Part shown: in pieces, positions 1 to 41,799 of the stretch | How the letters are laid out: each line of letters starts with the position of its first letter | Numbering within the stretch: the first letter of the stretch is position 1 | Source of the DNA: Monocercomonoides exilis PA203 | Taxonomy: Eukaryota; Protista; Preaxostyla | Assembly: GCA_001643675.2 (NCBI GenBank) | Contig: LSRY02000028.1 | Coordinates: 310,001-374,000, forward strand | Length of the DNA: 64,000 bases | Direction of reading: 5' to 3' | Made by a program: the position numbers and the translations under genes | The notes under the pieces: generated by a model | Told to the model about the DNA's origin: nothing | What the model saw: only the letters and a program-made list of their open reading frames with translations | Database searches by the model: none

Positions 1-409
1 ATTGTATAATATCAAAAACTGAACAATTTGTAAACTTCGATCATTAAGTGAACAACAAAATATAATAAACCTAACATCAAAACCTTTATAAAGAAAAATA
101 AAAATAAAACATACTCAAAAATGAATAAATCAAACATATATAACTGGTTTATGTGAAAGAACACATTCCCAACTAACTATTTGACGTGTTGCAACAATAA
201 AAACAAAATCTACATTTTCCAAATTATTTGACTTGTTCAGAAAAAAATGAACAACATACAAATTATAAATTAAGAAATAATCAACATATCAAAAAATTTA
301 TAAAAACAAACTGCTCTGTTGCAGAAAACACAAAAAACCTCCAAGAATTTCGATCAAAATTGATATATTATTTTTATATTTTTGATCACAAATAAGATTG
401 ACTGAAAAC

Positions 410-501
410 CGAATTGATTAATTCAAAACCAATAAAATAAACATAAAACGTTTTGACTTAATCAATTCGAATTGACCCGCTCAATTCGTTAAAGGTCAAC
501 T
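410..501. repeat. Tandem hairpins; probable right end of a DNA transposon extending left of the window
   Basis: CGAATTGATTAATTCAAAAC (410-429) and GTTTTGACTTAATCAATTCG (450-469) form a 19/20 inverted repeat. A second hairpin follows, CGAATTGA-cccgc-TCAATTCG (468-488), and the segment ends ...CAACT then AAT. The right end of the 4934-11429 element has the same architecture. Confidence 0.5.
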
Positions 502-875
502 AATTAGTGTGTAAAAAACCCGGACATGTAATAAACCCGGAACTCGATAATTTTTTGTTTTATTTTTTTTTCTGAAGAGTATTTTTCATGTCTTATCAAC
601 CAATTGTCACGTTACCGCTTTTATAATTAAAAGAAAACTTTCAAACATCGCATTGTTTCAAAAAAAAATAAGAAAAATTTTGAAAAATTAAAAAAAACTA
701 ATTCCACACTCATTCATTTAAAAATAAACATAACAAAAATATAATTTGAATTCCAACTTAACTGAAAATTATACTTAAAAAAATAACATGTTTTTAAATA
801 GTTAGAAAAAAATTTATAAAAAAACGCAAAGCGTTTGATTTTGATAACAATAATCAATTTCTCACCAATGGTTTG

Positions 876-1630
876 TTAAAAAAACACTTGAAATTTTTCA
901 AACAACATGAATAGAGAACAAAATTTGCACCAAAGGACAAAGAAAAGACTCAGGCTTTTCTTTAATTTTTGATCATTTTTGTTTGATGCAACAACAAGGC
1001 TTGGTATAACTTCAGGAGTTGTTAAAAACACTTCTTCCAGATTGAAAATACATTCCGATTTGTACTGATGCTCATCAAATAAATATCTGTCTTTTTTCAA
1101 ACCAAAAAAAGGCATTCCTTTGTTGAATGAGAAGCTATCTCCACTGATAAATGGATTGGATGGACAAAGAAAAGGTACTCGTTCGAATTGATAAAAGAAT
1201 ATGACCAAGTGTAGTATACATGTTTACTCTGAGTTGGCTTGTGTTGATCTTCAGCTATGTATTAATGAGGCAATAAACTCATAACAAAAAGATATAAACA
1301 CAATACTTAAAAAAAAGAAAGAAAAATCCAACTATGTCTCTCACTTGTTTTGCACACGGAAAGGCGCCAAGTTGTATTTTATCTTTAATTTTTGAGAAGA
1401 ATGCAGTTTTGTTTTGCTTGTTCAGAATTGGGGGGTCTTCCGATTCTGCTAATGTCCCTTCCTTCCTTCCTTGCCTTTGCTGCACGATAGAAACTGCTTT
1501 TCGTAACTAATCCGTTCTTTAAAAATATTGTTGGCCTAAACTTCTTCGATTCCATTTCATCCAACAATTCAAGCAACTTCTCTTCCCTGTCAACTGCATT
1601 GATTGCAATGTCATGGTTATCTTGCGTCAT
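876..1630 (-). pseudogene. pogo/CENP-B-like transposase remnant (HTH + CENP-B HTH + start of DDE_1 domain)
   Basis: Frameshifted pieces join as KSSFYRAAKARKEGRDISRIGRPP / ILNKQNKTAFFSKIKDKIQLGAFPCAKQVRDIV, a short intron, then ...YYTWSYSFINSN... and YKSECIFNLEEVFL (cf. pogo IFNxDET). It is truncated soon after. Confidence 0.55.
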
Positions 1631-1949
1631 TGAATCATTCTCTCCTTCGACAGCCTTTTGATTGAATCTTCTCCATTATCTTCCTTTTCTAAATATTCAT
1701 CCATTATTTCATCATCGCAAAAACAAAGCAAAGGGGGAATATCAACAATGATTTGATAAAGGTTCTTTTATTCGTTTCCATTAAAAAAATATCATAACTT
1801 TTTTTGAAAGAAAATTCCAATCGATTATTTTTATTTTTCAACTTGAAGAAGTGTTCAGTTTATGCATAATCATGCAAAGTGAAATGTGATAGATAAATAT
1901 GATTAACTCATTTCATAAAGACAACTTTTCGTTGGCGCATGAAACTGGG

Positions 1950-4409
1950 TTTGTAACAGAAAGATTTTAAGGGTTCAGAAGCTGCAAAGCCAGCTGGTTG
2001 ACGGAAGAGCTTAGGGAAGGAAGCTGATGAAGTGGAGGAGAAGGAGATACAGAAGGAGATACAGAAGGTGCCAAAAGAGATAGAGAAGGAGTTGATCCGG
2101 TCGAGGGATCAGCAGAAGTGAGTGGAGGTGGAATTGGAACAGAAGAAGATGAGAGCTCGGCTAATGCTTATGAAGAGATTGCATCTGATTTCTGTTGGAC
2201 TGCACTCAATGAAGACACAGAATTCTACTCCTTATGAAGTGTAAGTGAAGAAAGAGGCAAAGATGATGAGTGTGTTCTCCTATTCGCATAGTCCACATTC
2301 ACTGTCATTTGCTCTATGAACATCTTCCGCTGCGTAGACACAACAGCTGCTTTGCGGAATCCGTTAATCCTATTCTTGTCTGCCACAAACAGAAAGCCTC
2401 CGACTGTTCCTTGAAGCTGCCTCTGCTGCTCAGAGGGCACGATAATATCGTTGGAGGGATCAGAAAATGGATTGATGCTCATCTCAGATGAAGAATTGTT
2501 ACTTCCTGTTTGATTCTTATTTGTTTGATGTGAATTGCATCTTTCACTGAAAAGAGTGGTATTTGTATGGAAATTTCTTCCTCCACAGACATTGTGGGAG
2601 CACACGAAGTCGCATCCATTTGCATCTGAATCGCACACCATCATTTCTGAGGACATACACAGCAAAGCTAACAAGAGGGAATCTTCATTTCAAAGTGCTC
2701 TTTTCAGCTCTCCTTCTTCTACAGTCGAGAAAAAGTCCTTTCTCTCTGCAAAGTCACCTTCTGTTTCGAGGAGAGAAAGCACGTCAGGCGGAAGAATGGA
2801 AGCAGGAAAGCTCCTCTTTTGCGCAGCGCTGATGATGCGGTGCTCGAAGGAGGTTTGTTTGATAGCGTCGGAGAGGAGAAGGAGGGCATCGCGGACAGAA
2901 GAAATGGAGCGGTAGGGAAATGAAGGTGAAATAGAAAGAGGGGATAAGAGCATTGGGAGAAAAAAAGTGGAAGATACATCGATGTTGGTGGAAGAGATGA
3001 AGATGATGAAGCAGACTGTGGATAACCCAAAGCACTGCTTTTCCCCGCCAGCCTCTTCTGTGCCAAAGAAGTCATCGCCTTGTAAAATGCAAGTGGAGAC
3101 AGGATCGGGTTGACTGTATCGACCAGCATATTGAACACATTCTGCGGGCAGCTGGTAATGAAACCTTCGTCCATCATCGTCGACATCAGAGACGATGGGG
3201 CCGCACTGTCTGCCTCGCTGATCTTCCGAATGCGGTCGCCGCTGAGAATCCAGCCAGCACTGCTGAGCAGCTGAGATGGCAGCTGGCTGCTGTTTGTGGC
3301 GTTCATGCCGTGCTGCTTGGCTGTCTTGCCTGCTCTGCTCTCCTTCTGCTGTGATGCAAAGGAGATGATTGGAGTGACCAACAGCTCGATTTCCTTGGTG
3401 AGTGGAGAGAGGAGAGGGAAGAGAGCAGACTGGCAGATAGTGGGGGAGGAGGAGAGGACAGACAGAGGCAGGGCAGTTGTGTCTGAGGCAGCTGCATATG
3501 CACCTGTGTTTTGAGAGCTGTTGGAGATACCACACAAGTTCTGAATCTGATGTGAAGAAAATGTTGGAGCACGGATGGGTTTATAAGCATGTGATAATGA
3601 TGTCTTGAATGATGATGAAGAAGAATAGCTTGTTCTATCTGCACCGCAATGCCCATCTTCTGCTGAAAGCGTAGCGAGCGTTGTGATCTTCTCATATTGA
3701 TAATCGAACTGTTATGTGTGTGCCTTGAACCCAGGACTTTGTGCCTCGTCGACCTCACTAAGTGTCTCGAAAACTGCCACTGCTCCGTCAATGCCTTCAA
3801 TTCTGTCTGAAGGTGTTGGCGGGATTGGCTGCAGCCTACTTTCCGAATAAGAATCGACCGATTTTCTGAGAGGAGATGCAGCAGCATGTACAGAGAGAGA
3901 CTTATGCGCAGAGAGGGAGCTGAGGAAGGCAGAGGGAGAGTTGTGTGAGTTTGACTGCTTAGAGGGAGTGAAGGAAGAGGGGCTGTCATCATCTCCGGGA
4001 GGTGGGGCGTGTGATGAAGAGGGGTAGATGGAAGAAGAAGAGGAAGAGGTGGAAGAAGAGAATGAATGAGGAGAAAGAGGAATGGGAGATGGAGAAGGAG
4101 GTTGGGATTGGGGAGTGGGCATCTGACAGAAGATTGTCTGGGGTGGAGAAGAGGGGAAAGAAGAAAATGGCAGGTTGAGGGGTGGTGAGTGAGTAGTTTG
4201 TGAGGGCGAGAGATGCATGTGTAAAGAGGTAAAGCGGAGATTTTGGTGCTGGATTGACATGGCAAGTGGAGGAATAGATGGAGGCAGCTGAGTGGTGTTG
4301 TGCAGTGTGGAGAAGACAACCGCAGAGAGGGATGATGTTGAGATCGTTCACGCGCAATAAGATGTTTATGATAAAGAAACTTGTTATCACACAGGCTAAA
4401 TAATTGCAA
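1950..4409 (-). pseudogene. Disrupted Ser/Pro-rich host-like gene fragment inside the transposon
   Basis: GC-richer, coding-like block. ORFs 3303-4409, 3712-4260, 2719-3537, 2690-3535 and 2225-2674 chain together through frameshifts and in-frame stops. No family recognised. Confidence 0.5.
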
Positions 4410-5132
4410 ATTGGATTTTCAACTTCCCTGCGAGAACATTTCAGTATAGACTTTTGATTGTTTAAAACTGGAAAGAATTCGTAACGTTATAATCAATAAA
4501 AACATTTATAGTTGCGAATATTTCATAAACAATTAGAATATTTAATTCCAAACTAAATAATGATATGAAAACAATTTATACTTAACAAACTTGTTGATTT
4601 TAATTAAAACACATTTGTACATTCTTCTACATGAATTGTGGTGAATAATTACATCTGTTGTTTTTGCGTTTGTTTGGATTCATCGAAAAATAGAATGAAA
4701 AATTTGAAAAAGCAATTATCAAAGAATAAGAAGTAAGTAAATAAAATAAAGAAAGAATATAACTTTCAATCAAATGAACTGTTGAGATTTGAGTTGTTTT
4801 ACTCAAATTTGTTTTTATGAGAAAGAAAACTCACAAAAAACATTTTTCTTTAAACTGAAAATGGGATTTATTTTTTATTGATCTTAAATTATAATTAAAA
4901 AGGGAATTATTCCCGGGTATTTGACACGCTAATAGAACTTGATTGATTTGACTGCATCAAGTGGCATTAGATCGGTCAACATTTAATAAGATCGATCTAA
5001 TGCCATTGAGACTCAGTCAAATTGGATGTGACTCATTCACATCCGATGTTTTCAATTCTGGGTGTGATGATCACTTTTAAAAAATATCTTTAAAGGGTCA
5101 TTTCACTTGCTTGTTTCTGTTTTTTTCACAAA

Positions 5133-6864
5133 ATGTCACAATCAACTTTTTTAGACATATTAGAGAGAGTGGAAAAGAGAAATGCTATCACTGCACCAGT
5201 GCACATCACTCATTCACCTGCGAAAAAACCCCTCATCGAATCTGCTTGCAAATATATGAAAGTTGATAAAACTCATGCATTTTTCCGACTCACTGGATTT
5301 GCTCGTTTTGAATTCGATTTGCTCTATCAGTTATTAAGTAAAGAAATCCCTCTTCATCGTGGGAAAGAAAAAACAATTGAAAAATTTAAGGATCAACTCT
5401 TTCTTCTTTTGAATTTTTTGCATCTTGGATCAACATCCTTCACTCATTTTCTCGTTTCCTCTTTTTATGAAACACAAAATTCAACAATAAAATTGCTTCA
5501 CAGCATTGTTCAAAATATTAAAGTCAATCTGATCGATTTGTTCATCACATTTCGACCAGATAGATTAGATGATATGAGAGATGTGGGTGTTGTGGTCGAC
5601 TGCACAGTTCTTCCAATAAACAGACCAGCTGGAAGCTTGCAGTTTGGAACAAAATTCTACAGCGGGAAACATCATATATACTGCGTAAAGGCTGAAATTG
5701 GTGTAAACCCGCGCACCGGAACAGCCAGCACTGTCAGTTCCATTCATGCCGGCTCAACGCATGACTTTTCTATCTTCAAGGAGCATTTCCCACAATTTAA
5801 GGCGCAGCTTGGAGGCTCAAAGGTGCTTGCGGACTCGGCATACATCGGAGCGAGGGCTGATTTGGATGCATATATTACGAAACCTGTCGGAACTCCTCAG
5901 CTAGCATCGCGGTGAGTAATTGTTGAGCGTTATTTTGGTCGTTTGAAGACTCTCTTCGCTGTCTTTCGCCACAATTTGCCATTTCAGGTCGAAAAGATTG
6001 CTGACCACTTCATTGTTACATGCGCACTGACAAACTTCCACATCCCACACAACCCATTAACTGGACTTGACTGCGAAGCCAATCAGAGGTTCATCAATGA
6101 ACTATACCTAATTACAACAAGAAAAACAGAAGCAAGGAGACTTGTCAGCGATCGATATCGGGCGAAACTTAAGAATAGGCTTAACCCAGAGGCCTCTCCA
6201 ACTTCAAGAATAACAGTTCTGCTTGCGGAAGAAGCTTGTGTACTTTTTTATTTTCTACCCATATGTCATAATTTTTTTTAAAAAGTTCCTTTTGTTTAAT
6301 TTTCGAAAAGATATAAATTTCATATTTCGATCACATTTCTGTTCCAACTTTCCAAATTTCAATGTCATGAAAGCTAAATATTGACAATGTTTATTCTTCC
6401 ATTTTAGTGAAGTTTCGTGAGAGGGAACAGAAATATGATCGAAATATAAAATTTTAATTTTATTAGAAAATTAAATATAAGGAACTTTCCAAATAAATTT
6501 TGACATATTATTCTTTAAAACGTTTAATTTCTTCTTTTTCATATTTCAATAACCATAACTATCTTTTTCAGGTGATTCTGATGACCAACAAACCCAAAAT
6601 AGTGAAAAAGAAGAGAAAGAACAAGAAAAAGAAGAAAAGAAAAAGAAAAAGAAAATTTCTATTGAAGAAAAAGAAAAAAGAAATGAAATTATTATGTTGA
6701 ATAGTGAAAATGATGAAATAGAAGATGAAAGAAATAATGTTGTTGGCACATGGTTCATTCCGAACCAATGGAAAAGTCTTCGCCTTCTTCAACAATCTTC
6801 TTCTTCAACTTTTCCTTCTTCTTCATGTTCATCATCTGATGAGAAAAGAAAAAGAGAAAGTTAA
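5133..6864 (+). pseudogene. DDE_Tnp_4 (Harbinger/IS5-like) transposase with one in-frame TGA; probable intron 6238-6571
   Basis: Motifs FFRLTGF, VVVDCTVLPINRP, FYSGKHHIYCVK, GSTHD, VLADSAY, then R*VIVERYFGRLK (TGA at 5913-5915, in frame with ORF 5943-6281) and TCALTNF. A charged exon 6572-6864 follows the acceptor CTTTTTCAG. Confidence 0.85.
6261..6508. mobile_element. MITE-like hairpin element in the transposase intron
   Basis: Ends ATATGTCA...AAAGTTCC and GGAACTTT...TGACATAT, with long imperfect inverted arms (TTTCGATCACATTTCTGTTCC vs GGAACAGAAATATGATCGAAA). Confidence 0.7.
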
Positions 6865-8322
6865 TCGCCTTTACAATCTCTTTTAGCAAATATATAATGA
6901 GTTTTTTCATATTTTTTTATATAAACATTCACCTTCATCACCTTTTTTGATAATCACAATACACTTTTGATGTTTGAGATAATATTTGTTTTTGTGGTTA
7001 TTAAACATACTTAAAAATATAAAAATTTTTGATTGAAAATTGTTTTTAACTATTTAAAGCTTAAAATAAAAAATGAAAATATGAAATGAATGAAAATGAA
7101 CATTTAAAAAAACACGTATATGCAAATATTTAAAAATACATTCAAATATGGTATTACTGTTGTTTGATTTGTGAAAAAGTTGGAATCCTTTCAGAAAATA
7201 CATAAAAACTTGTTGCAAATACATAGTATGAAAAATAGATAATACAGATTGTGTATAAAATACCGAACATCGCAAAAAATTCCGGACAACTTTAACTATA
7301 AAGGGTTTTGATAATCTTTCAATTTTTGAAAAAAGAACCTGTATATAATAAAATAATTTGAGTCAACAATCATTTACATTCACATTTCAGATAAGTTTCT
7401 TTTGATTGAAACCCATTAAACATTTTATTTTTCATTTCATTTGCTTTTCCTTGAATTTATCTTTAAATTACATTGCTTGTGAATAATAGCAAGAAATAAA
7501 TGTTCTTGATTCAAAAAATATGCAAGTTAAACATTGTTAACTCAATTTATTTATCCATTTTGATAATGAAATGAAACAAGAACATGAAACAGATATTTTT
7601 GCAAACAATACATAATGTTCAAGTGAAAATGCACATATGCAACATTTGTTTTCAAAATAACAAAATATATAACTAAATACACAACAAAAATATTAAAAAA
7701 TAATACGGATCAAATAACAATAAAAACTCATTCAAAGATTAAAGGATCATAAGTTTGAAAGCAACATCAACATGAAAATACGCATTGTTATTCATAAAAA
7801 GCAACACAAAAATTAGTGATTACAAAGAAATCGGACAAAATCAACAACTCAAAACAATCGTGATTAAAAAAACGATAAAAAATAGATAGAATATACCATT
7901 TGAATTTATATTGTTAACTTTAAAGAATTATTCAAATACTAACAAATTTGTTCACTTGAAATTATTGTTTTCAAGCGAATGAGAAAAAAATTATTAAAGC
8001 ATCATAATTGACAAATAGAAATAAAATTTGTCGCAATGCAATCCATAAAGCAAACCTTCAATTAGTTTGTTTTATATCTTTTTCCGCCTGTTGCACTAAA
8101 GAATATAATAAAAGAAAGCACAAAAAGTTGAACATAATAGAGATCATCAATACCATTAATTAAATATCAAAAAATATGATAATATATTTGTTAATGTTTT
8201 TTTGAAAAATATTTCTTTCTGATTATTTGAAGTATAGAGTACGGAAAAAATAAATATTTTTGAACGCCAAACATTGAAGAAAAAAGCAAAACTGAGTTTT
8301 GAACATCAAAAACGAACAATTA

Positions 8323-9540
8323 TCACAAAACTTTGAGAAAAATTTTCTGGATAACATAACAGTTCACTTTCTTATCATTATTCAATTCACTTCTTTTATT
8401 ATATTCCACTTCATCATATCCTTCATTCGCATTACGCGAGGAATGTGAAATTGAAAACAACAAGAAGATTGATTTCACATCTGAAATTATTTCAAGATTT
8501 AATTCAACGATGTGACAAGTCGATTTGATATAATAATAAGCAATCGTGTTTAATATTTCTCCATCTATGCTGATAGCGCAACTTTTCAAAATAGCTTATC
8601 ATTTTGAAAACTTGATTCGATAACTGCTGTGTTTGTTCAATTAAAGCTCAATGAGACTGCAATTTTTATAAATTTTATTTCCATCAGAATGGCTTGTCAC
8701 ATTGAGTACATTTCTGATTGCTTTTCCTTCTGTTTTGCACATTATTTTTGAAAGATTATCCAACTTGCCCTTTTAGAACATAGACCTTCAAACACAGAAG
8801 AACACCAAACAATCTTTGCCTGATGTTCTTTTCCTTTTTCAGAAGTCCTATCACATTGTGCGCACTTCTTCAGTGTATCTTTAATTGTCCACAATTCAAT
8901 GCCTCGATTCCAGGCTCAACTTCCTCGTAAACTTTGTCAGCAAAAGATCAGTTGAGAAACACAAGCAAGCCAACAATTCAATCTCGGAATTCTTCTGTTC
9001 TGTTGTTCCCAACAATGGAGTTGTTATTTTGATGGATGCTTTGCATAATGAAAACAAAGGCTCTTTAGTGCAAACAACAAGGGAATCGCACACAATATTC
9101 TTACCTCTTCCGACAAATACCTTGTTGCCCGAAAACACAAAATTATTGATGAAAAGAAGAAGACTTACACTTTAAACACATAGTTGTTCTTGATAACGAG
9201 TGCTTCGCCTTTTCCGCGGGTTGCACTTTCACCTACGTCCTCACTCACATTGCACACGATGAAGGTGGTGTAGCTCACTGCAAACGAGTTGGTAGTGGCA
9301 GATGAAGCGAATGAGAAATGCCCACCATTTGCAGCTGTTTGCATGTTCAACAATACTGATGTGATGCTGCTCGCAGGAAAAGTGGCGATGGAGAGGGAGA
9401 GGGTGAGTGTGATGAGGAATCTTTGACTTTTTAAAAAATGGTAGAAGTGTGAATTTGATCACGTGATGATGAAAGAGAGGATAAAAAAAGAGAGAAGAAT
9501 AAAGAAAAATGTTAATAAGAAAAAGAAGGAGATTCAAATA
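8323..9540 (-). pseudogene. Degraded host-gene fragment, possibly a beta-helix surface-protein-like sequence
   Basis: Broken ORFs such as NGGHFSFASSATTNSFAVSYTTFIVCNVSEDVGESATRGKG and FSGNKVFVGRGKNIVC in a GC-richer island inside the AT-rich element. Confidence 0.35.
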
Positions 9541-9749
9541 CAGCGATTATGATCATGTTGATAGTGAAGAACAACGTGACAAAATGGAAGAGAATAAGGA
9601 GGATAAGCACATTAATGTGAATAATGAGAAAAAATTTAAACTACTATTCACGAGAATCAAAATTTGTAAACTTTGTTCTTTTTCACAATTCTATTCATTT
9701 CTCTGAAACTTCATATTTTTTCAAACTTTTTTATTTATTTAATTTTTTA

Positions 9750-9983
9750 AATGAAAAATTTTTTTGAAAAAAATTTTGTTTAATTTTCAAATTTTTGAAA
9801 TTCAATCGATCATTTTCTGTTTTTCACCAGATTTCATGAGAATGAATATAACATCATTGTCAATATTTTATTTTCATAACAGCAAAATTTGGTAAGTGGG
9901 AACAGAAATTTGATCGAAACATGAAATTTTTATTTTATTTGAAAATTAAACAAAAGGAACTTTTCTAAAATAATCACCCATAT
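9750..9983. mobile_element. Second, inverted and more degenerate copy of the 6261-6508 MITE family
   Basis: 9857-9964 closely matches the reverse complement of 6281-6390 and ends ...AAAATAATCACCCATAT. The left boundary is approximate. Confidence 0.6.
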
Positions 9984-10758
9984 GAAAGAATATTTGCTTT
10001 CAACTTCGAATCGAATTCAAATACTTCAATCTCTTTCTTATTCATTTGAATTTTCACATTTATTTCTCCGACATTCATTTTTATTATAGTATGATACTAT
10101 AAATAAATTTTGAGTTAAGCTTGCATCAATCAACAATAGAGTTAGTTTGTTTCCGCAAAAATAAAACAAAGCAATAATTTTCATTTTCAAAGTCAAAAAG
10201 ATTGAATGTGAAAGAAACTTTTCTCTTAAATAAATTGCCGATATGATAACTTAACATTTACACAACAACTTTATTAAATAACAATTTTCCATCAGTGAAA
10301 AAGAATTATCATTTAAGTTTCATTTCATTTTCAGATAAAAAACGTTTATGTGAAGCGATAAATTTGGATAATTATTGAAAAAATAATGCAATGATGACAT
10401 TATTTGTTGATTCATAAAACAAGATTGAAGCTATTTCGCGATTAATCGTTTCATGCCTATTGCATAGTCAAACATCCTCTTTAATTTTCTTTTCTTTTGG
10501 CAATATTCATTCTCCACTTGATTCAATTCCCTGAACACAAAGAAAACGAATAAATAAATTATGTATATAAATCAAAAACAGAAACCGGTTCTTCACTGTT
10601 TTTGAGTTATGTGCAACTTTTTCGAATTTTTAAAAGTGTTGGCTTCCGTTTTCAACAGTTTCATTTCATTTTTTAAATGTTGAATTGCAAGAAATGATTT
10701 TTTTATTCAGTTCAATGACCCATAAAATATTACTGCAACAAATATTTCAAAAACCAGT

Positions 10759-11023
10759 ATATGGGTGACTATTTTTGAAATCATAACTTTTTTCGGGATA
10801 TTAATATTTTCAAATGTTATTGACCATCTGGAAGAGATTTTGAATTCAAATGCTGAATTCATCACAACTGTTTTAAAAAAACATATGTGAAAGCTAAAAA
10901 AAGACGAAGACCTTTTTAAAATGCCTGTTAACTTTTCAGTGTTCATTTGCTGATATTCTCGGATATTTTTCTAACTGAAAATTTAGATTGAAGAAATATG
11001 ATTTCAAAAATAATCACCCATAT
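10759..11023. mobile_element. MITE with ATATGGGTGA termini
   Basis: TIRs ATATGGGTGACTATTTTTGAAATCATA (10759-10785) and TATGATTTCAAAAATAATCACCCATAT (10997-11023), 26/27 match. Confidence 0.8.
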
Positions 11024-11435
11024 CTTCATACAGAGCTGAATGTATCAATCAAATGAACACTTACAAGAAATTACTTTGAAAAATTCTTTTTGATCTAACC
11101 TTAATTTTAATTTTTGCCGGTATTTTTTGCGATGTCCGGTATTTTATACACAATATGTAGTGTAAAAACTGATCAAAAATGGCTTTTATAATATCTAATA
11201 AACACACAAACCAAATTCTAAAACACAACTAAAAACATTGGAAAAGAAATTAACAAAACAAAAAAAGTTAAGATCACAACACTCAAAACAAATTTAATTG
11301 ATAATTCCGAAGCTGAAAACATGTGAGATTGAGGGAAATTCGATTAAAAAAAGAGAAATTCAATAAACCATACATAAATCGATTTGACTGAGTCACATTT
11401 TCGCGACTCAGTCAAATCAATCAAGTTCTAATGTG

Positions 11436-11507
11436 GCTCCTATAGTGTAATGGTTAGCACCTAGGACTTTGAATCCTGTAATCCTGGTTCGAATCCAGGT
11501 AGGAGCA
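11436..11507 (+). tRNA. tRNA-Gln (anticodon TTG)
   Basis: Cloverleaf: acceptor GCTCCTA/TAGGAGC, D arm GTGTAATGGTTAGCAC, anticodon arm TAGGA-CTTTGAA-TCCTG, T arm CCTGG-TTCGAAT-CCAGG; 72 nt. Confidence 0.97.
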
Positions 11508-11512
11508 TCTAA

Positions 11513-11525
11513 TTTTCTCATTTTT
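11513..11525 (+). terminator. Pol III oligo-T terminator of the tRNA gene
   Basis: TTTT (11513-11516) and TTTTT (11521-11525) just downstream of the tRNA. Confidence 0.55.
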
Positions 11526-11680
11526 GCATTTTGATTAATAAACAATATTGCTGCGATTCGATGAATTCTTTAAAGATTTTTCTTATCAAAGCATTAACAT
11601 GACTTTCTTCAACTGCAAATCAAATGCAACATTTATGTTAAATTCTTTAACCACTATTATTTTTTTCCTATTTTAGTTTT

Positions 11681-13592
11681 ATGACAAATAAATTACCTGA
11701 CGATTTTGGAAAGGATTTAACTACGGATGAGAGAAATAGACTTGCAGAATGCTTTAAAAAGAAAGAATTTACTGATTTATTTTTCCAATACATGAAGGAG
11801 ATTTCAGAACCTGGCGCAAAGGAAGAGTACGATAAAATGATTGCTATGGCAGAGAAGGAGGCAAGAAAGAAAAAAGAGGAAGAAACAATAAAACAAGTTG
11901 TTCATCAAAATCCTCCATCAAAATCTAAAAAGAATCAATCAAAACCCAAACAGGAGACGCGAAATAAAAAACAAAAATCCGATGCGCGTGAAACCAAAGA
12001 TGATAACGGTTGCACGAGCTTCCAAGGAAAGAGAGTGGGTAAACCATCTCAGCAAAAAGTTCAAGCGAATAATCAAAAATCTGAACAAAAAGCAAAAAAT
12101 GTTACTCTTCCGAAATACAAAATTGTCCACTCTAGCTTTTTTGACATGGGAGATTACACTGAAGTTTGCACTAACTTAACTTCTTTATGAATTTTGCATC
12201 TCCAAAAACTTTCAGTCGAAAGACACTGATCTTGTAAGACTTCCCGATCAACTTAAAGCAACATTTGAACTTCCTCTTATTGTATGCTGAAGTGTTTTCT
12301 TTTTGAATTTGAATTTGCTCACGATTCATTTGTGCTTTTCTAAGAGTTCTGTTCAAGAAATTGATGTTGATTTGGAACCAAAGCGAGTTATTTTGACTTG
12401 TCCACCAGGTTCTGATCCATTAAAAACAAAATCTTCCAATTCTTCTTTATCCAACAATGATTTACCTGACTGTATATATTACGCAGATGTTGAACTTCCA
12501 TATCCTGTTATTGTTGATAGCTGCAAAGCATCATTTGATAAGTCAACACAACAGTTACTTTTGGTGTTTGGAGTTGACAAAACAGAAGAAGAAAAGAAGA
12601 AGAAGCAATTGAAAGAGCAACTTGAAAAAGAACGCAAGGAAATGGAATTGAAAAAAGACGAATCTGATGATGAAGATGAAATATTACAGAAAGATGAAGA
12701 TGAAAAACAAAACAAGATTATTGCCGAAAAAACAGCTGAACAATCAGTTTCATCAACTGACTCATCCAATTTACAGCAAAAAGAATCTGAACCTTTTTCT
12801 TTCAAAAAAACAGATCTTTCGTTGTCTATTGAAAAACCAAATACAAAAGACTTGCCCGAATCTTCAGTCGAATTCACAATCACCATCAAGCCGCAGACCG
12901 GAACAATTGACACGAAAAGCGTTGAAATAAGGCCAGAGGAAGATGGAAAGGCTATCCGAATTGATTTTTTGACGGAGAATCCAAGTCAAACACATTCATA
13001 CATTTTGCAGACGAATAATTCTTCCACTTCTTCACCATCAAATGAATCTTCTTCTTCTTCTTCTTCTTCTTCTTCTTCTTCTTCGACTGCTTCTGTGCAA
13101 CAAACTCCAAGCAAAATATCTCCTTCTTTTGATATCATTTCAATCCACCCCACAATAACTCCAATTGGTTTGTGCATTGTTGCGTCGACTGCATCGAAGG
13201 AGTCTGGGCAAATGCCAACTTCGGGCTTTCTTTCCTCTTCTGGCTCACTTCGCGAGATGCCCACCATCCATCCGCCTCCTCTTTCTCCTTCTGCACAAGC
13301 TGTGTTTGACAGAGAGTCACAGAGCTCTGAAGATCATTTTGGAGAAGATGTTGAGAATGGGAAAAACGAAACAAGCAATTCAGTTAATGATAATGGACAA
13401 TTGAATCAGAAAAATGAGGAGAAAACTCAAAGTAAAGAAGGGAAAATAAAAGGAAAAGAAGAAGAGGAAGAAGAAGAAATAGAGATTGTAACAACAAAAG
13501 CAGCTGCGCTTGATGCAAAACGAGACGAACAATTTTCTTCTTTCAGACAGTCTGTGAAAAATAGTTCACTTCTTGATTTAGATGATTTTTAG
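11681..13592 (+). CDS. DNAAF2: Kintoun/PF13-like dynein axonemal assembly factor (exons 11681-12163, 12216-12281, 12345-13592)
   Basis: N-terminal DLTTDERNRLAECFKKKEFTDLFFQYMKEISEP, then PKYKIVHSSFFDMGDY and a spliced CS domain RLPDQLKATFELPLISSVQEIDVD...YYADVELPYPV...KASFDKS. GT-AG introns keep the frame. Confidence 0.75.
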
Positions 13593-40064: not shown

Positions 40065-41799
40065 ATTTATTTTATTGCATCAACTTGAAAAACATTTCAT
40101 TTTTTGGATTTAATTTTATAAATAAATTGTGTAATTGAGAATTTAATTTAAAAGCTGCATTATAAAGGATATAGAAACTGTTGCTTGTGTCTAAATTAAT
40201 TAATGATTAATTAAAGCAAAATTTTTCTATGCAAAGAAAAAAAAATTATTATTTTTCTATATAAACCAAGAAATTTGATTCAATATTTTTTATTAAAGAA
40301 AAGAAGCATTATTATATTTATAATTTAAAAAAGACATATTATTGAAGACATATCAATTTGAAAAATAGATACTGTTTTTAAAAAATAAAAAATTGAGCAT
40401 CAGAGTCAGCAAGCATGTTGATGTTCATTTTTGAGAATATGTTTCACGTGTTTAAAATAGCATCAAATACTTTTCAATTATGATAAACTTATTATTTAAA
40501 TTTAATTATTTTGAATATTTTTTATTTAAAAAATTTCGATACAAACAGATCATTGGTTAAATGTCAAAAAATGTTTTTTTCATAATATTTTGTCAACTTT
40601 CGTAAAAAATAGTACTTAAGACAAACATCGATTTCAATTTTTTGCACGCAAAGATGAAGAAATCGACTTTTTCAAAATATTATCATGTTAATTGAAATTA
40701 ATGATTTTTTTTGAAATAACATGTTGAATAATTAGTGTTAATGTTGGTGGACACTTTCAACAACTGTGGACAATGAAGTTATCTCAGCAAGTGTTGATTG
40801 CAGCATTTCGATTAATATTCTTATTTTCTTTCAGATAAATATCAGCTCTTTATTATTATCACAAACTGCAAACTTTTTTCATTAAAAAATCTTTGTTTTA
40901 TTCTACAGAAACAAATATTTTTTGTGAATGAAATTTCACTCATTTATTTCATTATGAAAAATATAATTATTTCGTAAATCAGTGGGATAAGAGTTTTTTT
41001 TTCTGTGAAACACCAGTGTTAAAATATGTTAATTTCAATATCAGAATATTAATCGAAATGCTGCAATCAACACTTGCTGAGATAACTTCATTGTCCACAG
41101 TTGTTGAAAGTGTCCACCAACATTAACACTAATTATTCAACATGTTATTTCAAAAAAAATCATTAATTTCAATTAACATGATAATATTTTGAAAAAGTCG
41201 ATTTCTTCATCTTTGCGTGCAAAAAATTGAAATCGATGTTTGTCTTAAGTACTATTTTTTACGAAAGTTGACAAAATATTATGAAAAAAACATTTTTTGA
41301 CATTTAACCAATGATCTGTTTGTATCGAAATTTTTTAAATAAAAAATATTCAAAATAATTAAATTTAAATAATAAGTTTATCATAATTGAAAAGTATTTG
41401 ATGCTATTTTAAACACGTGAAACATATTCTCAAAAATGAACATCAACATGCTTGCTGACTCTGATGCTCAATTTTTTATTTTTTAAAAACAGTATCTATT
41501 TTTCAAATTGATATGTCTTCAATAATATGTCTTTTTTAAATTATAAATATAATAATGCTTCTTTTCTTTAATAAAAAATATTGAATCAAATTTCTTGGTT
41601 TATATAGAAAAATAATAATTTTTTTTTCTTTGCATAGAAAAATTTTGCTTTAATTAATCATTAATTAATTTAGACACAAGCAACAGTTTCTATATCCTTT
41701 ATAATGCAGCTTTTAAATTAAATTCTCAATTACACAATTTATTTATAAAATTAAATCCAAAAAATGAAATGTTTTTCAAGTTGATGCAATAAAATAAAT
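40065..41799. repeat. Long inverted repeat: 757-bp arms (40065-40821, 41043-41799) with a 221-bp spacer
   Basis: The arms read as reverse complements wherever compared, have equal length, and are very AT-rich with no ORFs. Confidence 0.95.

Follow-up and report, generated by a model that had tools for sequence, protein, structure and literature searches.

Insertion of a PHIS-type DNA transposon family at the 5' starts of tRNA genes in Monocercomonoides exilis

Targeting of Pol III (RNA polymerase III) start sites has arisen many times, and the reviewed or surveyed cases are all retroelements (PMC5911963, PMC5006619). Ty3 needs TFIIIB; it inserts upstream of the start site, at a distance of 1-4 bp, and the start site in turn precedes the mature tRNA by ~10 bp (PMC5911963). 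In the gene-dense genomes of Dictyostelium, the retrotransposons NLTR-A (D. purpureum), DGLT-A and TRE5 (D. discoideum) also target tRNA 5' flanks. Among DNA transposons, the Dada elements insert inside RNA genes and make a 6-7-bp duplication, and those target-specific DNA transposons of eukaryotes that the Dada papers name go into genes or microsatellites (PMC8869645, PMC3706591). Here we describe a 64-kb stretch of the genome of the oxymonad Monocercomonoides exilis PA203 (contig LSRY02000028.1, positions 310,001 to 374,000; hereafter the window), in which a PHIS DNA transposon with a DDE_Tnp_4 transposase ends just before an intact tRNA-Gln gene. Other copies of the same family lie before other tRNA-like starts. 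This is a real case of a known strategy in an element class not known to use it, and more than a curiosity of one locus.

The features of the window are collected in Table 1. The first-pass annotation, made from the letters of the window, had placed a Harbinger-like element between two AAT copies and had proposed that such DDE_Tnp_4 elements target tRNA 5' flanks. Its coordinates, the AATs (4931-4933 and 11430-11432), the GTG and the 6-nt gap to tRNA-Gln all match the sequence, and the element is bounded by perfect 21-nt terminal inverted repeats (TIRs), of which 1.5e-4 pairs would be expected by chance within 12 kb. A 22-nt TIR starting with T was rejected, because no target duplication would then remain. 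Both ends are strongly palindromic (fold z -4.5 and -6.8), and a nested insert accounts for 3.9 kb of the span. Excision of the elements in silico reproduces the previously proposed empty site, AAT-T-AAT-GTG-[tRNA], with insertion sites at -10, -7 and -6. The tRNA-Gln gene is the sole tRNA and the sole Rfam match in the window, and it is followed by a T4 run (11513-11516) and a T5 run (11521-11525).

Table 1. Features of the transposon stack and the adjacent tRNA gene (positions within the window)
Feature	Position	Strand	Remarks
Putative terminus of a third element, PHIS-like	402..501	.	two subterminal palindromes, AG inward, then AAT 502-504
TA duplication left of pogo-type element	505..506	.	
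Pogo-type element, non-autonomous	507..4929	-	imperfect TIRs 507-523 and 4913-4929 (14/17)
Pogo transposase remnant, residues 1-233 of about 470	945..1704	-	frameshifted, stops soon after first catalytic D
GC-rich, Ser/Pro-rich decayed coding-like DNA within pogo element	1900..4400 (limits approximate)	-	
TAAT junction	4930..4933	.	pogo right TA (4930-4931) overlaps PHIS left AAT (4931-4933)
PHIS (Pangu/Harbinger2-like) DNA transposon	4934..11429	+	2,581 bp with nested insert removed
Left TIR of PHIS element	4934..4954	+	21 nt, AG start, subterminal palindrome next
Transposase exon 1, DDE_Tnp_4	5133..6237	+	92-97% identical to six family members
Palindromic repeat within predicted intron 6238-6571	6260..6508	.	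related copy 9755-9984
Predicted exon 2, charged low-complexity tail	6572..6864	+	motif W-F-I-P-N-Q-W-K-S at 6751-6777
Nested TA-flanked TIR element	7245..11157	.	TA 7243-7244 and 11158-11159; ends 38/41 alike
Right TIR of PHIS element	11409..11429	-	21 nt, perfect, subterminal palindrome internal to TIR
AAT duplication and GTG	11430..11435	+	6 nt separating PHIS element from mature tRNA
Intact tRNA-Gln(TTG), A and B boxes	11436..11507	+	ARAGORN; Rfam 69.6 bits, full model

The check proposed with the first-pass annotation, whether other copies of the family also lie at tRNA genes, comes out in favour of targeting in a small sample of flanks. Contigs from four DNA runs were aligned to 11357-11522, and right ends only were examined. 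Eleven of the 16 loose-end rows listed lie behind the PHIS right end, and the seven single-contig rows give five distinct flanks, one of which was present in three of the runs. Of the five flanks that could be read, four contain a tRNA-like 5' start with an A box, at 5, 7, 9 or 10 nt from the TIR and on the same strand. Their layout is a three-letter duplication (AAT, AAT, AAT and ATT), a spacer (7, 2, 4 and 6 nt, respectively), a 7-mer starting with G and then, at tRNA positions 8-18, an A box. A pairing D stem is present in one of them. Flanks were matched by eye against the generally known A-box consensus: three follow a strict pattern and one, whose row ends at 30 letters, a relaxed one. 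Of 127,920 positions in the window, 56 are followed by the strict and 176 by the relaxed pattern, a background of ~0.001 per site. At p 0.001, four of five flanks have a probability of 5e-12, and even four of 30 would have one of 3e-8. Both AATs of the rebuilt empty site (-10 and -6) fall within the distance range of these flanks.

The five tRNA starts and spacers, that of the window included, all differ, which indicates separate insertions that are not bound to one tRNA sequence. The trinucleotides next to the TIR are AAT (four, including the window), ATT and GAT, read on a single side only outside the window; 5/6 match ANT and 6/6 match N-W-T, and no empty site was seen. Such variation is expected if position outranks sequence. 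We conclude that this PHIS family targets tRNA starts, and put the probability of this conclusion at about 0.9.

Untargeted insertion, with the pattern left by selection against other sites, by duplication of one old insertion or by chance, is very improbable. DNA transposons make up 4.5% of the assembly and its repeats cluster in gene-poor regions (PMC8767320), and the readable flank sample is small, all of which gives this explanation some room. However, 153 tRNA genes are predicted in the 74.7 Mb of the genome (PMC6759080), and from this density the chance that a given end lies beside one is 1e-5 to 4e-5. The flanks of other copies largely refute untargeted insertion. Selection cannot confine insertions to a span of 6 nt out of megabases of intergenic sequence. 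A single duplicated locus was rejected because the tRNA starts and spacers differ.

The pattern can be compared with the described systems point by point. Like Ty3 of S. cerevisiae, Tj1 of S. japonicus and Tyl3, Tyl6 and Ylt1 of Yarrowia, the family shows position-specific 5' insertion at many tRNA genes and leaves the gene intact, and it shares with Ty3-like targeting a narrow 5' window (five sites at 5-10 nt, different tRNA genes). Ty3-gypsy elements belong to the retrotransposons with a long terminal repeat (LTR) and use an integrase, whereas the element here is a DNA transposon that has TIRs and a duplication of 3 bp; the scanned open reading frames (ORFs) and frames gave no Pfam match to a reverse transcriptase or integrase. 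The sites described here, 5-10 nt from the mature 5' end and at or inside the presumed start, are closer than those of Ty3. The nearest match in distance is NLTR-A, at 2-6 bp before the mature tRNA (PMC5006619). NLTR-A, DGLT-A and TRE5 also resemble the present family in that they target tRNA 5' flanks in a gene-dense protist genome, but they are retrotransposons. Dada elements are likewise DNA transposons with a DDE enzyme, are specific for small-RNA genes present in many copies and occur in tandem insertions, but they split the gene, use one RNA type per family and encode a hAT/P/MuDR-related enzyme; the Dada-U6 and U1 families, as described, have no TIRs, in contrast to the perfect TIRs, several tRNA types and insertion outside the gene seen here. 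Membership in Dada was rejected on the grounds of insertion upstream, an intact gene and a 3-bp duplication. Pokey of Daphnia is another DNA transposon that prefers a multicopy RNA gene, but it is of piggyBac type, a different superfamily, and inserts within 28S rDNA and elsewhere.

Stacking of elements recurs across the genome. Among 28 M. exilis PHIS transposase accessions (21 + 7), picked by homology rank, five pairs are consecutive where 0.04 are expected, and none of 200,000 simulations reaches five. Accession order serves here as a proxy for gene order, which is supported by same-size contigs and, in three pairs, by consecutive locus tags. The members of each pair overlap in the same protein region and are 56-69% identical there, so they belong to different subfamilies and are neither split genes nor fresh tandem copies. 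Of five pogo gene models, three lie three accessions from a PHIS gene; the P value of this proximity is 4e-6 at random, and 0.004 or 0.03 if transposon genes fill 10% or 5% of the slots. These data establish common hot spots; they are not proof that each is a tRNA gene. One pogo transposase model, P0190, has the apparent N-terminus of a second pogo-like transposase appended, and is possibly another stack.

How the family finds tRNA starts can be explained in several ways. The 6-nt window, the several tRNA types, the loose N-W-T and the intact gene together form a position-specific tethering pattern, as for Ty3. By this analogy, tethering of the transposase to the Pol III initiation machinery is the probable cause of targeting. 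The transposase would dock on the Pol III initiation complex and then cut a nearby N-W-T trinucleotide, with insertion sites that would coincide with the Pol III start or lie just inside it if this is at about -10, as in the yeast rule. Because tRNA promoters are internal, the gene would keep working and be targeted again, and new elements would push older ones upstream to build stacks.

Alternatively, the transposase itself could read A-box DNA, as Dada elements may, and cut 12-17 nt upstream with no need of a host protein. Dada families are thought to recognize primary sequence, including A-box sequence (PMC8869645, PMC3706591), and an A box at a similar distance is common to all five tRNA-side flanks. 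Yet the five genes have different A boxes, and the distance to them ranges over 6 nt. Each Dada family uses a single site within the gene for a single type of RNA, and Pfam scans of the transposase found no additional DNA-binding domain. We therefore consider direct reading unlikely. The same low probability applies to a mechanism without any specific tether, in which a nucleosome-free, bent or melted AT-rich tRNA start is simply exposed to the PHIS and pogo transposases. That two unrelated superfamilies share places would fit exposed chromatin, as would the preference of Hermes for nucleosome-free regions in yeast (PMC13273895). But ~18,000 protein-gene promoters would then compete with 153 tRNA genes, and still four of five flanks are tRNA-like within a 6-nt span; moreover, Mu and P favour open promoters, yet are not enriched near tRNA genes (PMC7337890).

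If tethering operates, a putative tether is the motif W-x-x-P-x-QW[KR]S in the predicted disordered tail of the transposase, with TFIIIB, TFIIIC or Pol III as the possible partner. This hypothesis takes its analogy from the Ty1 integrase, which has a small targeting domain (PMC7459421). The tail is encoded by the predicted exon 2, which earlier annotation had not remarked; the predicted intron joins the two exons, and the exon 2 tail matches those of paralogues. The motif is present in the window and in paralogues P0005, P0009, P0010 and P0024, which fall in four different 90% clusters. Its region has a pLDDT (predicted local distance difference test) score below 50 in the P0024 model, and few sequences cover it. 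One transposase subfamily carries a different tail.

Several observations weigh against these readings. The aligned runs come from one study and one sample, probably the window's own, and the flank figures rest on the 16 listed of 26 loose-end rows. Four rows of mixed consensus, comprising 13 contigs with an agreement of 0.50-0.65, could not be read and are left out of the count, and the readable sample is five flanks only. The fifth of these reads GAT, then AG, without an A box, and is possibly the end of another element. The tRNA-like flanks are known from their first 20-25 nt only. Occupancy is partial, since other tRNA-Gln copies have an upstream side without a PHIS end (two rows). Expected adjacent pairs rise to 0.84 if transposon genes are confined to 5% of gene slots. 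The tail motif is missing from the annotated tails of subfamily P0011, P0012, P0013 and P0026, and from all other stored relatives too. Finally, seven distant metagenome loci (25-36% identity, short contigs) show no tRNA and no clear termini. One of these loci, L002, has nested palindromes at 4391-4490, ~3.4 kb from the distant transposase relative, that are like the hairpin-rich ends in the window.

The first-pass annotation had extended targeting to a second superfamily by calling the element at 507-4929 pogo-like. The label holds: TA lies on both sides, the ends match at 14 of 17 positions, and by homology the element is a pogo-type Tc1/mariner transposon. Its remnant is 78-82% identical to M. 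exilis proteins P0186-P0189, three of which carry the PF03184 (DDE_1) domain. The tblastn match stops at residue 233 of 472, short of the Pfam-matched region 260-403, and the catalytic domain is thus incomplete; the window copy differs in this truncation from its DDE_1 relatives. The pogo identity came from the homologue search with 1388-1675 only; a search with 879-1223 turned up 59 candidates and no homologue among them. For 1388-1675 the atlas gives helix-turn-helix clusters with scores below 0.9, which are no more than a lead. No transposase domain appeared in Pfam scans of the pogo element or of the nested one, and the decayed Ser/Pro-rich stretch has no Pfam match and no match to 191 stored proteins. 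The pogo ends, unlike those of the PHIS element, are not strongly palindromic (fold z +1.4 and -1.0). The family co-locates with PHIS genes, which is not known as a property of pogo elements.

Whether pogo itself aims at tRNAs is close to an even question. Targeting by PHIS stands, whereas for pogo three of five genes lie near PHIS genes but only the end in the window is placed at a tRNA. PHIS alone might be tRNA-targeted, with pogo inserting into or beside resident elements, an account that is compatible with PHIS tethering and that falls only slightly short of even odds. The junction sequence is identical for either order of insertion. The nested element, which earlier annotation did not remark, is also flanked by TA and has an end core resembling that of the pogo element, and the tRNA is 278 nt from one of its ends and 4.2 kb from the other, which shows that decayed TA elements can arrive later. 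Two of the five pogo genes stand apart from any known PHIS gene by more than 600 gene models. On the other side, the PHIS element by itself offers 151 TA sites, yet pogo went into the only TA between two element ends, and pogo looks more decayed (~80% identical to relatives, against 92-97% for PHIS), which suggests that it arrived earlier, 6-7 nt from the tRNA. The stronger proposal, that PHIS and pogo each evolved Ty3-like Pol III docking in oxymonads and that the nine-residue tail motif is a portable targeting signal, is doubtful.

In a mixed consensus of four contigs at 11432, nine letters right behind the PHIS end match the core of the pogo TIR. The match is out of register with both pogo ends of the window and is a hint only; pogo-like ends may lie between PHIS and the tRNA at other loci. 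Among the loose ends at 11428, another copy has a short tandem duplication of the last TIR bases, seen in three runs. Upstream of the pogo element, 402-501 is plausibly the end of a third, PHIS-like element: it is strongly palindromic (fold z -5.8), and in this it resembles the PHIS ends and not the pogo ends. No partner end was found in 1-489.

As for classification, the Harbinger label holds in part. The main element looks Pangu/Harbinger2-like by its features and is filed here as PHIS only. Pangu, which is the same as Harbinger2 (PMC12730594), has TIRs of 11-40 bp with an AG or GG start, an ANT duplication and, in most autonomous members, a second ORF (PMC4482050). The DDE transposase and the 21-nt TIR with AG start agree with this description, and the AAT on both sides of the window element would fit an ANT duplication. 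In contrast, one flank is GAT, and no second ORF was found once the nested insert is set aside (2,581 bp, one copy checked); the ORF at 6559-6864 is the predicted exon 2. Neither a tRNA preference nor a metamonad host is reported for Pangu in the available text of PMC4482050. Canonical PIF/Harbinger was rejected, as the duplication is AAT and not TWA and no Myb/SANT second ORF was found. So was ISL2EU, which has an AT duplication and a GG start; here the start is AG and AT is not repeated on both sides.

The transposase matches PF13359 (DDE_Tnp_4) with E 6e-12, and its paralogues with values up to 3.5e-26. Across 70 sequences both D residues of the DDE triad are invariant and the E is at least 90% conserved. 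An in-frame TGA at 5913-5915, also unremarked before, falls at transposase codon 261, which is Arg in the closest copies. Twelve of 13 close homologue matches are M. exilis proteins (best 95%), and one protein of this cluster is identical to window positions 5574-5912. A profile search recovered 3,737 transposase relatives at E 0.001, with Blattamonas nauphoetae the source of one of the ten clusters checked; in a quick tree of 72 rows, built without named reference transposases, the M. exilis group sits inside a branch that includes Blattamonas. The predicted structure gives weak matches to DDE transposase and integrase cores, only one of them with E <0.001, and a sequence search for a solved structure found none. 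Scans of genome and viral contigs with the transposase alignment, and of genome contigs with the TIR pattern, gave no matches. The contigs that carry relatives P0036 and P0177-P0183 measure 2.5-2.8 kb, close to the length of the window element without its insert.

The remaining features of the window are of a different kind. No coding match was found for the nested element, and blastn and tblastx comparisons of the pogo element with the nested element, and of each with the rest of the window, gave no match. Within the nested element a 27-nt inverted repeat (10759-10785 and 10997-11023, 96%, 211 nt apart) is a possible small miniature inverted-repeat transposable element (MITE). The palindromic repeats at 6260-6508, in the transposase intron, and 9755-9984, in the nested element, are 73-77% alike and MITE-like. 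Directly downstream of the tRNA lies a host gene (11651-13592) with a weak PIH1_CS match (E 5e-4, below the curated cut-off). Farther along, a perfect 763-nt inverted repeat (40065-40827 and 41037-41799, 209-nt spacer), AT-rich and between two convergent ORFs, could be either a fold-back element or an assembly artefact.

A full-text literature search, covering sources outside Repbase and subscription journals, found no DNA transposon that targets tRNA 5' flanks. The oxymonad genome papers do not discuss such elements in their available text (PMC8767320, PMC6759080, PMC10703272), and their supplements may bear on the matter. In two further papers only Ty elements are named at tRNA genes, again in the available portions (PMC13269885, PMC13273895), and "DNA transposon" does not occur in the main text of the Dictyostelium survey (PMC5006619).

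If our reading is correct, targeting of Pol III genes would be a safe-harbour strategy independent of retro-integration, and one that extends to the metamonads. The family would offer a single-gene system of ~2.6 kb with a candidate targeting peptide that could be deleted or grafted, making tethering testable for DDE transposases, and it may possibly serve as a tool for gene delivery to safe sites. If both superfamilies dock on the Pol III initiation complex in oxymonads, tRNA starts would be self-renewing landing pads for stacked DNA transposons.

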